This document shows positions 9,819 through 11,961 of a DNA stretch of 64,000 nt, in pieces (positions within the stretch are counted from its first letter, which is position 1; the number at the start of each line of letters is the position of its first letter). The translations under genes were made by a program, and so were the position numbers. The stretch comes from Alphaproteobacteria bacterium (GTDB lineage: Bacteria; Pseudomonadota; Alphaproteobacteria; SHVV01), in assembly GCA_965261735.1 (NCBI GenBank), contig OZ253470.1:3168001-3232000 (forward strand), in the 5' to 3' direction. Below the pieces are notes generated by a model. That model saw only the letters and a list, made by a program, of their open reading frames with translations, was not told the DNA's origin and ran no database searches.

Positions 9819-9866
9819 GCACCAACACCTCCAAGCCCACAACGGCCCGTGCGGCGCGGTAGTGGG

Positions 9867-10748
9867 TCAGTTTGAATTTATTTTCTGGTAGGGACCGCGA
9901 GGGCCGAGATTCGGGGCCGCTTCGTCGACCAACCGCACGATGTCCTCGATATCCCAGAGCCGATCCGTAACGCCAGCGGCCATCGCCGGGCTGATCTTGT
10001 TCAGGCTCTTATGCTGGCGGCAAAAGTTGTAGTACATGAAGTGCAGCGCCACGCTGTGCGCGTGGTTCGCGATCTTCTTGCTGAATGCATTGGTCGACCG
10101 AGTGAAACGGCGGATCGACATCCGCATGGTCAGGTTGTTGCGCTCGACGTAGCTCGTAGAGACATGGGCGGGGTCCGGCTTGCCCTCGACGCTGCGCTTC
10201 CGCGCCCCGATGCAGGTCGGCGGGCTGTAGCGTTTCTCGCCGTCCTTCGCTTTGCCGTAGATTTTGACGAGCTGGGCATAGTCGACATCGCCGCCGAAAG
10301 CGCCCTCTACGGCTTCCAGATAAGGCTTGTGGCCATCGCTGGTCAGTTGGACCCGATTCTCCAGCCGAGACCGCAGATCGTCCATGAAGTCGATGGCGGT
10401 TTCACCCGAACGATCACCGATCCTCCACGACGGAACTAGCTTGGTGTCGGCGCAGATCGCGGTCCATGTCCAGACATCGCCAGCTTCCACCGGGGCGGAC
10501 TTGGCGCGGGCGACGTTCTTTTCCTTCGCGTAGATGAAGGACCAGATTTCGTCGACTTGTATACGTTCGCACGGCAGATCGCGCAGCGCCTTGTCCTGAT
10601 GGTCGGCGCACGCCTGGCCGGCATCAATCAGGAGCTTGGTGACCGTGTTCTTCGAAACGTCCGCAGTGCGTGCAGTCGCCCGGATGCTTTGGCCTTCGAC
10701 GAGGCACCGGACGATCAGCTTGCGGGTCTTGGGGTCTAGCCTGTTCAT
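9867..10748 (-). CDS. IS1-family transposase (HTH + DDE)
   Basis: IQVDEIWSFI, QLTSDG, STSYVERNNLTMR, FTR.TNAFSKK. Confidence 0.9.
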   Translation of the reverse strand: MNRLDPKTRKLIVRCLVEGQSIRATARTADVSKNTVTKLLIDAGQACADHQDKALRDLPCERIQVDEIWSFIYAKEKNVARAKSAPVEAGDVWTWTAICADTKLVPSWRIGDRSGETAIDFMDDLRSRLENRVQLTSDGHKPYLEAVEGAFGGDVDYAQLVKIYGKAKDGEKRYSPPTCIGARKRSVEGKPDPAHVSTSYVERNNLTMRMSIRRFTRSTNAFSKKIANHAHSVALHFMYYNFCRQHKSLNKISPAMAAGVTDRLWDIEDIVRLVDEAAPNLGPRGPYQKINSN

Positions 10749-10754
10749 GACCAT

Positions 10755-10783
10755 AATATACGTGCGCTAACGGTCAGTTTCAA
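10755..10783 (-). promoter_or_regulatory. sigma70-like promoter for the transposase, probably leaderless
   Basis: Minus strand reads TTGAAA-17 nt-TATATT, then 6 nt to ATG 10748, with no Shine-Dalgarno. Confidence 0.5.
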
Positions 10784-10834
10784 GACATTTCAACCAGTGT
10801 GTGTGAAACACATACATGGGAAAGGGCGGTCGGA

Positions 10835-11060
10835 TCGGGGTTGCTCGAATTCCCGAACATCTGTATATGATGAACCCGCGACGCTGAAGACGTCGCGGGT
10901 TCTAACCAATCCCGATGCAGGGGCAAGATAGAGCGGGGTTTAAAAAGATGGGTCCGACATTTTAGAACCCGCCCGAAGCCGGTCTCAACCGGCTTCGGGC
11001 ACCCCGCCTGCGGAGGTGGCATGACGTGCCACCTCCGCAGGCCTCCTTCTACCAGAAGCA
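10835..11060. ncRNA. putative structured RNA or leader inside the IS1 element
   Basis: Perfect stems at 10872-10902 (12 bp), 10971-11000 (13 bp) and 11006-11042 (16 bp); enclosing stem 10835-10844/10907-10916; imperfect stem 10932-10972. Confidence 0.45.
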
Positions 11061-11073
11061 GGGGGCGGCGACA

Positions 11074-11628
11074 ATGGTCGACAAATCAAACGCGTACGAT
11101 CTTGTGATTGCTGACCTGAAGCGTCAGCGCTCAGAGATAGACGCCATGATTGCCAAATTGGAGGCCATGGCTGGCGAACAGGTAATTCCACCTACTGATG
11201 CGCCTGATGCTCCGCCGAGCGAAGGCGATCCGGGTGGTCGGTCAGATCCCGAGAACAATCCGTATTTGGGTATGCGTGTAGCGGACGCTACGGTCTTGTT
11301 GTTGAAGAAGACGCGGAGGGCGATGGGTCCTTCGGAGATCGTGCAACATCTTGAGGCCGGCGGCCTTTTACTGAGCGGCAGCAACAGGCCGGGTACGATC
11401 ACGACGATCCTCAGTCGCCGTCAGGGGAAAAATGGCGATCTGGTGCGGCCGAGACGCGGCCAGTGGGGCCTGAAAGAATGGTACCCTGGACGGAACTTCG
11501 GAAAGACCGACGGAGCCGACAAGAACAACTCCAACGACGAGGACGCCACCTCGAAGGCTAGCGTGACCACCGAGCCCGAACAGCCTTCCGAGCCGCGTCA
11601 GAGCGCTCCGCCGCCGTCAGACGACTAG
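11074..11628 (+). CDS. passenger protein: N-terminal coiled coil plus winged-helix (HARE-HTH-like) domain
   Basis: YDLVIADLKRQRSEIDAMIAKLE; ATVLLLKKTRRAMGPSEIVQHLEAGG...TILSRR...LVRPRRGQWGLKEW. Confidence 0.7.
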   Translation: MVDKSNAYDLVIADLKRQRSEIDAMIAKLEAMAGEQVIPPTDAPDAPPSEGDPGGRSDPENNPYLGMRVADATVLLLKKTRRAMGPSEIVQHLEAGGLLLSGSNRPGTITTILSRRQGKNGDLVRPRRGQWGLKEWYPGRNFGKTDGADKNNSNDEDATSKASVTTEPEQPSEPRQSAPPPSDD

Positions 11629-11797
11629 CCCTCGCGCGGCCACCGACTTGGCCACCCTTGCGGCCCCTCTCGACTGCGGAGGGGTCTTTCTCTTGGGGGC
11701 CTGTGCCTGTGTCTGTCTCTTCGACCTCGCCCGTCGCCAAGTCCACGATGTGCTTGGCGAGCTGGTTGGTGTCGCGGGGCCTCTTGCGCTTCGACAT
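11558..11797 (-). CDS. small basic passenger protein with KGG-like motif
   Basis: MSKRKRPRDTNQLAKHIVDLATGE...AVERGRKGGQVGGRARASRLTAAERSDAARKAVRARW; reads inward from the right terminal repeat. Confidence 0.7.
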   Translation of the reverse strand: MSKRKRPRDTNQLAKHIVDLATGEVEETDTGTGPQEKDPSAVERGRKGGQVGGRARASRLTAAERSDAARKAVRARWSR

Positions 11798-11961
11798 CCC
11801 ATGAATATGGCACGCCTCGGCCCGAACGGCTAGGGTTCGGCCAACGGTCCGACATTTCACACTGACCCACTACCTGCGGCGCGGGCGCCGTTTGACGCCT
11901 GTCCGGGTTGGTGTACGATGCCGACGCGCCGAGGCGCCGTCATTCACCGTTGAGGCTACCC

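Follow-up and report, generated by a model that had tools for sequence, protein, structure and literature searches.

The 64,000-nt window analysed in the present study, a stretch of contig OZ253470.1 from an alphaproteobacterium with a 5.03-Mb genome, holds an IS (insertion sequence) element of the IS1 family at positions 9858–11874, and we investigated the 300-bp block that separates its two divergent genes. The element encodes three proteins, namely a 295-residue transposase on the minus strand (9867–10754), a 184-residue HARE-HTH passenger protein on the plus strand (11074–11628) and a 79-residue basic protein, orf3, on the minus strand (11558–11797), whose gene is convergent with the passenger gene and overlaps it. 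The 19-nt terminal inverted repeats (left, GGTAGTGGGTCAGTTTGAA, 9858–9876; right, 11856–11874) agree at 18 of the 19 positions (95% complementary), and the direct repeat TGCGGCGC lies on both flanks (9850–9857 and 11875–11882). There is one copy of the element in the genome. Four DNA metagenome runs gave evidence on the presence of the element, its variants and an empty-site joint; this joint, 9849 linked to 11875 with ten letters shared, was found in all four, in one contig per run with sides of 20–48 nt, which we grade as modest evidence. Thus the element is a discrete and polymorphic insertion. The 300-bp block within it most likely consists of the transposase promoter, an opposite-facing promoter-like box and a leader of ~200 nt belonging to the passenger gene.

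An earlier note on this DNA, made from the sequence alone, had described three perfect stems of 12, 13 and 16 bp in the block, and all three were found. The parts of the putative leader lie on the plus strand. A passenger promoter-like box (10841–10869; TTGCTC, a 17-nt spacer and TATATG) is weak, with seven of 12 consensus matches, and is followed by hairpin 1 (10872–10902; 12-bp stem 10872–10883/10891–10902, loop CTGAAGA), which sits at the predicted transcript start. Next come a Shine–Dalgarno-like GCGGGGT (10933–10939), which can pair with ACCCCGC (11001–11007) in the predicted fold, and the very short ORF (open reading frame) that it leads, a five-codon mini-ORF at 10948–10965 (ATG GGT CCG ACA TTT TAG, encoding MGPTF). 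Hairpin 2 (10971–11000; 13-bp stem 10971–10983/10988–11000, loop CTCA) and hairpin 3 (11006–11042; 16-bp stem 11006–11021/11027–11042) follow, and in the last part (11043–11065) the fold pairs a pyrimidine tract, CTCCTTC, with the passenger Shine–Dalgarno sequence AGGGGG (11060–11065). The fold had a z-score of −7.95 on the plus strand and −8.12 on the minus strand, and none of 100 shuffled sequences was as stable.

The hairpins are not a repeat scattered across the genome: blastn and a covariance model both found the block to be unique in the 5.03 Mb, and it is not a repeat of the REP (repetitive extragenic palindrome) or MITE (miniature inverted-repeat transposable element) type. The Rfam search that the note had proposed returned no family for the region (Rfam 15; the highest score in the window region was 21.6 bits, with the threshold at 106), and 13 related loci had no match in the leader either; we dismissed a ROSE_3 match that scored 20.8 bits where the threshold is 43. 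A terminator scan of 10755–11073 found no intrinsic terminator-like site on either strand, and the hairpins lack a T/U tract. The spacer has no conserved long ORF; an 80-residue minus-strand ORF (10780–11022) was rejected as a conserved ORF, since it is broken in locus L020. This locus has an intergenic region 81% identical to that of the window and is the sole sharer of that sequence among the transposase relatives. Two further pairings in the note held up in part. Its enclosing stem occurs in the minimum-energy fold, but one base further left and with one G·U pair; the left arm has diverged in L020, and the stem is kept neither there nor in a second HARE locus, L086. The 11-nt alternative pairing (10895–10905/10962–10972) is present, but two of its pairs are lost in L020 by uncompensated changes and it is not kept in L086.

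The mini-ORF is, on comparison of the leaders, conserved. An ORF of exactly five codons with a Shine–Dalgarno sequence and ATG was found in six of 15 leaders, and one of no more than 12 codons in eight (the two further ORFs having six and 11 codons), counts in which the window and L020 are close kin, so that the independent lineages are fewer than the rows. All of these mini-ORFs start 106–126 nt ahead of the main ATG. No five-codon ORF was found on the antisense strand of the 15 leaders, and 300 shuffles gave a mean of 0.11 and a maximum of one. The peptides differ (MGPTF twice, MGPPR, MRTPA, MRATP and MTAKS), and the length and the start context GAGGTT..GAAGATG are kept. Between the window and L020 the mini-ORF has changed at two codons, GGT to GGG and TTT to TTC, both synonymous. 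We infer that the mini-ORF is translated.

To follow the leader in other elements we used the transposase and the passenger protein as queries. The transposase relatives are the best 80 of 268 related stretches from a scan of a genome collection (L004–L083), and all counts out of 80 refer to these. Two or more perfect hairpins within 330 nt upstream of the transposase gene were found in only one of the 80, L020, which also bears a HARE gene, and 63 had no perfect hairpin upstream of that gene, relatives with co-directional cargo included. A search of metagenomes for the HARE protein returned 11 loci (29–42% identity), and most of them have a divergent IS1-type transposase gene, a 300–480-bp spacer, the HARE gene and a convergent orf3; the same holds for L096, the single match among 400 other genomes of the same class. 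A scan of viral contigs added L097, and a HARE protein search of plasmids and phages gave no match. In total, the order transposase, 300–480-bp spacer, HARE gene and orf3 recurs in 13 further loci (HARE identity 25–72%). A DNA pattern, GGAGGTTNNGAAGATG, was also searched for in viral contigs and proved unspecific: at least 118 stretches match, and none of 80 fetched encodes a HARE or IS1 protein.

The leaders of HARE genes that are 37–72% identical to that of the window, together with the leader of a winged-helix gene at L036, have the same order of parts. It runs from a perfect hairpin of 10–14 bp through a spacer, a Shine–Dalgarno sequence with an A-rich spacer and ATG, and a very short ORF to one or two hairpins and a pyrimidine tract complementary to the main Shine–Dalgarno sequence. 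With the window, L020 and L086 as input, we built a covariance model, R1. Run without filters, it gave full-length, same-strand leader matches directly upstream of a HARE or winged-helix gene in four further loci, namely L097 (45.8 bits, E 2e-14, a rough value because the calibration was shortened), L087 (21.7 bits), L036 (19.7 bits) and L096 (16.9 bits); at L085 and L088 the match was in the right place with just 3–5 bits. Run with the default filters, R1 matched none of 54 other loci at E ≤ 0.01, and in the 5.03-Mb genome R1 matched nothing besides the leader itself. Since R1 finds the leader beside HARE or winged-helix genes, with only two weak hits among relatives carrying other cargo, the leader evidently follows the passenger gene and not the transposase. 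At L097 (1207–4851), 25-nt inverted repeats enclose an IS1595-family transposase gene, a leader with the MTAKS ORF, a HARE-HTH gene and a methylase–Mrr fusion. Because leader and HARE gene there lie beside an IS1595-family transposase, the HARE-plus-leader cassette is, from these gene orders, common to two IS families, IS1 and IS1595. At L085 the HARE gene lies amid ordinary chromosomal genes, and no IS1 transposase gene or orf3 was detected in 5.2 kb; the leader accompanies this HARE gene as well, which tells against an RNA for the element ends.

We then analysed whether the stems are maintained. In an alignment fitted to the model, with nine rows of which two are partial antisense window palindromes and with sequences that are not independent, 90.4% of the cells pair compared with 70% in shuffles (none of 500 as high), 38 of the 61 pairs have changed on both sides, and controls with the partner slid along gave 39–48% paired. 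Changes on both sides were seen at 11 of 12 pairs of helix 1 (hairpin 1) and at nine of ten pairs of helix 9 (hairpin 3). Helix 10, which lies over the main ribosome-binding site, was 91% paired, with compensatory changes and many G·U pairs, which can form in the passenger-sense RNA only. The window and L020 alone differ by three compensatory pairs, of which hairpins 2 and 3 and the GCGGGGT/ACCCCGC helix have one each; in that helix the change is from G–C to A–T at 10936/11004. Hairpin 2 is kept in L020 with its one compensatory pair, two G·T pairs and one mismatch. The comparison thus shows stems that change by compensating substitutions. Taken with the R1 matches, these alignments also show that the order of the parts is conserved and that the leader is linked to the passenger gene.

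On this basis we hold, with moderate confidence, that the block is the control region and untranslated leader of the passenger gene and not an RNA that guides the element ends. Rightward transcription would make the stretch from ~10872 to 11073 the 5′ leader of the HARE-HTH gene. Hairpin 1 would cap the 5′ end and give stability, and may be recognized at its loop; the mini-ORF would load ribosomes on to the long leader; and hairpins 2 and 3, together with the pyrimidine tract, would hold initiation at the main site low. The leader would thus act in cis and set the HARE level via mRNA stability and translation initiation. The transcript, its start and the opening of the masked ribosome-binding site are inferred, and any particular switch in the leader is much less probable than the leader as such. 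The arms of hairpin 1 are wholly different between homologues and its loops are alike (CTGAAGA, CTGAAA, CTGCAA or CTAGAA in five of nine leaders), which hints that the loop is the part that is recognized. The loops are similar in the window, L020, L086 and L097 (CTGAAGA, CTGAAA and CTAGAA). In L096 there are two hairpins (1270–1297 and ~1420–1440), with different stems and the loop CTGCAA in both.

Several results weigh against the leader interpretation. The passenger promoter is weak (6–10 of 12 matches across the leaders) and a stricter promoter scan missed it, and the spacing of its box would put the RNA start inside the 5′ arm of hairpin 1. The mini-ORF is absent from seven of the 15 leaders, i.e. 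those of L089, L090, L091 and L093, which form a more distant HARE group, and of L096, L053 and L098. The two weak R1 matches in relatives with other cargo (L023 and L014, rough E ~1e-3) came from among the first 40 sources, and the make-up of the covariation alignment given above counts here too. No RNA sequencing run containing the element was found in the run search. The leader was more stable in the passenger sense in just four of 12 cases, and the stems have nine G·T against seven A·C positions, which is no strand signal; the three big stems are perfect palindromes. Because neither the fold energy nor these counts distinguishes the strands, the big palindromes could act as DNA or on either strand. 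The predicted probability that the main ribosome-binding site is unpaired was 0.11–0.27 in seven of eight leaders and 0.22–0.36 in shuffled leaders. In the window this accessibility is unremarkable (16 of 40 shuffles as low or lower), as it is in L087 and L088, and in the others it is mildly low; overall the comparison with shuffles was not significant. A simulated terminating ribosome on the mini-ORF left the main site equally paired in six of eight leaders and raised its unpaired probability in two, and no alternative pairing links the mini-ORF to the main ribosome-binding site. The earlier note's suggestion of a 'switchable leader' is thus borne out as to a conserved, structured 5′ leader of the winged-helix passenger gene and not as to the switch. 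In particular, a switch of the erm type was not supported, as the in silico ribosome on the mini-ORF failed to free the main site in those six leaders.

The absence of a strand signal is also what would be expected if the palindromes were DNA operators or structure-specific sites for the transposase HTH, a dimeric HARE protein or orf3, governing the two divergent promoters. The perfect stems without wobble bias fit this proposal, as does the position of hairpin 1, since a TTGnnn/TAnnnn box ends between −2 and +6 nt from it in seven of nine leaders and a site on the predicted transcription start is typical of a repressor; the HARE protein, moreover, is modelled as an N-terminal coiled helix and a winged helix, and the end-like site in the transposase promoter is plausibly bound by protein. 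It is at odds with other features of the palindromes: the three in the element are unrelated in sequence, arms of 12–16 bp are long for operator half-sites, and the replacement of the arms with retention of alike hairpin 1 loops, in L096 as well, suggests a folded hairpin read at its loop, while the mini-ORF and the G·U-rich helix belong to one RNA strand. We regard DNA sites as an unlikely explanation of the palindromes. The note's own alternative, 'repeated operator sites', does fit the transposase-proximal part, where GGTCAGTTTCAAG lies on the −35 box and relatives have a similar site. Equal stability on both strands would equally suit hairpins that serve as transcription barriers against read-through from orf3 into the transposase gene, or as insulators between the two modules: the passenger gene, on one strand, lies between orf3 and the transposase gene, which are both on the other, and three stable hairpins stand in a row on that path. 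With no T/U tract at any hairpin, an empty terminator scan, no perfect hairpin at that place in 63 of the 80 relatives, and a leader still present in L097 where the transposase gene is upstream on the same strand, a barrier function is decidedly improbable.

The earlier note had itself put forward an element-encoded RNA that, through a 12-mer at the apex of a hairpin, would guide or regulate end recognition in trans. The exact 12-mer GGTCCGACATTT is indeed present at 10951 and again at 11846 (11846–11857), where it adjoins the right terminal repeat, and the partial copies AACGGTC and GACATTTCA that the note had placed in the transposase promoter are there also. When only the spacer and the element ends were compared, three of 500 shuffles reached 12 nt, a framing that was chosen post hoc; an exact direct repeat of at least 12 nt anywhere in a 2-kb element arose in 14.5% of 400 Markov simulations, and the significance of the match is doubtful. 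The 12-mer corresponds exactly to codons 2–5 of the mini-ORF, and the two synonymous changes in L020, where its counterpart in the leader is GGGCCGACATTC, are not mirrored at the end of that element: the right end of L020 lacks the 12-mer and its subterminal sequence is different, so the predicted covariation between the 12-mer and the subterminal sequence is not seen there. The right-end subterminal sequence is not conserved in the relatives in general, and the longest leader-to-end matches in L020, L086 and L093 fall in the transposase-promoter part, outside the mini-ORF. The lack of the match in L020, the position of the longest matches elsewhere and the occurrence of the leader with an IS1595-family transposase that has other ends all argue against a role of the 12-mer in end recognition. 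DDE transposases recognize their ends as proteins, which counts against a guide RNA as well, and we consider such an RNA very improbable. A block without any function, made of chance palindromes or a decayed repeat, would be compatible with a single-copy element, with the readiness of GC-rich DNA to fold and with the lack of expression data; it is disfavoured as scarcely credible given a fold z-score of −8, the absence of other copies in the genome, and a part order and compensatory changes kept across homologues of 25–72% protein identity.

Compared with known systems, the proposed leader is not surprising in kind, and its mechanism stands at the level of a proposal. Translational attenuation of erm and cat is one instance of an upstream-ORF leader. 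PMC8092293 describes a short upstream ORF, mgtQ, which controls a ribosome-binding site held in a stem–loop before mgtB in Salmonella, and upstream ribosome-binding sites in Sinorhizobium are the subject of PMC13285730. Like these leaders, the present one would have a Shine–Dalgarno-led ORF of a few codons upstream of the main site and, close to that site, a pyrimidine tract able to pair with it, and the length and position of the ORF are conserved whereas the peptide is not. In contrast with them, ~100 nt and two stable hairpins separate the end of the mini-ORF from the main start, there is no alternative pairing to the main site, and the setting is the passenger gene of an IS.

Element-encoded guide RNAs are represented by the bridge RNA of IS110 and the omega RNA of IS200/IS605. 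The block resembles them in that a structured non-coding stretch adjoins a recombinase gene and a short segment is identical with the element end; it differs in that the match does not covary with the end of the homologue, the structure goes with the passenger gene from one IS family to another and the enzyme is of the DDE type. The idea of a guide RNA for IS1 gives way to that of a testable, undescribed, conserved mRNA leader with a five-codon mini-ORF. Such a leader would give a handle on the uncharacterized HARE-HTH family, with whose gene it travels between two IS families, and would serve, for GC-rich environmental bacteria, as a compact example from nature of a leader that contains a mini-ORF. 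A more far-reaching scheme, which we offer as improbable, is that leader and HARE-HTH protein form a portable RNA–protein module exchanged by IS1 and IS1595 elements, in which the winged helix reads the CUGAAGA-type loops of its own mRNA and the mini-ORF reports the translation state, so that a nucleoid-protein-like factor is gated post-transcriptionally. Were the scheme true, IS1-type elements would have their first described RNA-based control circuit, and its factor would act on the element or on foreign DNA.

The transposase-proximal end of the block has a promoter of its own. The transposase matches Pfam DDE_Tnp_IS1 (PF03400; 28.9 bits against a cut-off of 24.1) and, under its cut-off of 100, NCBIfam transpos_IS1 (65.6 bits), and its plasmid relatives are annotated as 'IS1 family transposase'. 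It is one ORF of 295 codons; the two-frame InsA/InsB′ layout of classical IS1 was not found. Single-ORF subgroups of IS1 exist. The alignment of the relatives begins at residue 3, and the third codon, ATG at 10748, is the likely start. The best-scoring promoter-like site of the element lies directly before this gene on the minus strand (10755–10783; TTGAAA, a 17-nt spacer and TATATT; ten of 12 matches), and its sequence is kept in L020. As the −10 box ends 6 nt ahead of the ATG, a leaderless transposase mRNA would be implied. For orf3, a −10-like CATATT likewise ends 6 nt ahead of the ATG (11797–11809, compared with 10748–10760 for the transposase), and the motif is kept in nine aligned right ends, which suggests that both mRNAs may be leaderless. 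A second minus-strand promoter-like site within the leader, facing the transposase gene (10988–10959; TTGAGA, an 18-nt spacer and TAAAAT; ten of 12 matches), was set aside, as its −35 box is not kept in L020 in an alignment read by eye.

The terminal-repeat-like GGTCAGTTTCAAG that the earlier note had seen in the transposase promoter is present at 10772. It is a copy of positions 8–19 of the terminal repeat, overlaps the −35 box and is followed by GACATTTCAAC (10772–10795 in all, plus strand), a region resembling the inner part of the right end, with two shared blocks of 9–10 nt and 8 extra nt between them. An end-like site is found ~45 nt upstream of the transposase gene in nine of the 80 relatives, and at 16–99 nt in 12, irrespective of cargo. 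The site at 10772–10795 is probably a transposase operator: because the end core that the transposase must bind overlaps the −35 box of its promoter, the enzyme, bound to this core, would probably repress its own synthesis. In IS1 autoregulation, InsA binds a terminal repeat that overlaps the promoter. The arrangement here is similar in that the −35 box coincides in part with a copy of the terminal-repeat core. It differs from the InsA case in that the putative promoter and the repeat-like site are internal, ~900 bp from the left end, and in that one ORF encodes the transposase, with no InsA/InsB frameshift.

The wider lineage is built on a fixed frame, in which the right repeat is followed by the small basic orf3, a variable cargo, the transposase gene and the left repeat. 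In most of the 80 loci the transposase gene is preceded, on its own strand, by an orf3 homologue, and the stretch that separates the two is variable (0.3–2.8 kb). Among 88 cargo ORFs scanned were Fic, HigB with HTH_3/M78, Gp49 with HTH_3, AbiEii-type and STAND ATPases, SDH proteases, methylase–HNH, MT-A70, SNase, NYN, P63C and Bro-N, with HARE-HTH in L020 and L046. The cargo often resembles toxin–antitoxin or defence genes. Given this varied cargo between orf3 and the transposase gene, the lineage is, by its gene content, one of ISs carrying passenger genes, and it is thereby exposed as a small carrier of toxin–antitoxin, methylase–nuclease and ATPase genes with a conserved basic accessory protein. 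Passenger-carrying insertion sequences ('tIS') are known in several IS families including IS1595, an IS1 relative, according to PMC7986276, which cites Siguier et al. 2009. As in a tIS, terminal repeats and a target duplication enclose a transposase and genes not concerned with transposition, and the cargo varies among relatives; unlike it, the present lineage also keeps orf3, which is small and basic, at the end away from the transposase gene, and one cargo appears to bring its own long structured leader, common to an IS1595-family element. The literature searched, which did not extend to ISfinder/TnPedia or most subscription journals, contained no account of the leader or of the IS1 lineage that carries it.

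The passenger protein matches the HARE-HTH family PF05066 with 28 bits against a cut-off of 25.9. In its structural model a long helix at the N terminus is joined by a disordered linker to a C-terminal winged helix; the mean pLDDT (predicted local distance difference test score) is 72.7. A fold search with the model gave only weak winged-helix neighbours, the DNA-binding domain of Rok (E 3e-3) and the delta subunit of RNA polymerase, and the language-model neighbours were unnamed HARE-HTH clusters. The modelled architecture and the Rok match recall nucleoid-associated silencers, which may serve as a lead only. The sole plus-strand terminator-like sites downstream of the passenger gene are at 11662–11686, where a hairpin has a T-rich tail. 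The orf3 protein matched no Pfam or NCBIfam family; it has 265 homologues, and the named ones are 'hypothetical' with one 'histone H1'. The 3′ ends of the HARE and orf3 genes overlap by 71 bp (11558–11628), and by ~68 bp in L086 and L088; the overlap is absent in L096 and L093. An antisense interplay between the two genes is possible.

The more distant HARE-carrying IS1 elements have spacers of another make. L089 (390–890), L091 (542–1060) and L093 (2005–2520) each have in their 470-nt spacer a very large perfect palindrome (arms ~45 bp, loop 60–70 nt), which occupies the same place in all three and has an unrelated sequence in each; an invertible segment or a fast-evolving palindrome would be our guesses. 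Together with L090, these loci have another conserved leader block, GGGAAATTACAGCGGGCTGG..CCAAGAGATGACC..TAGTAGTTAGGAACGGAGGCAC, with a covarying stem inside (L093, 2308–2491; L091, 843–1023; L089, 693–872; L090, 191–371). An inverted repeat, GTAATTTTCCC/GGGAAAATTAC, flanks a TATAAT-like box in the same four leaders, and an Rfam search of these leaders gave no match. Finally, the genome that carries the window element also contains a segment of a distant IS1-type transposase gene (G000:C1:896649–897161, locus L002), 67% identical over 510 nt.

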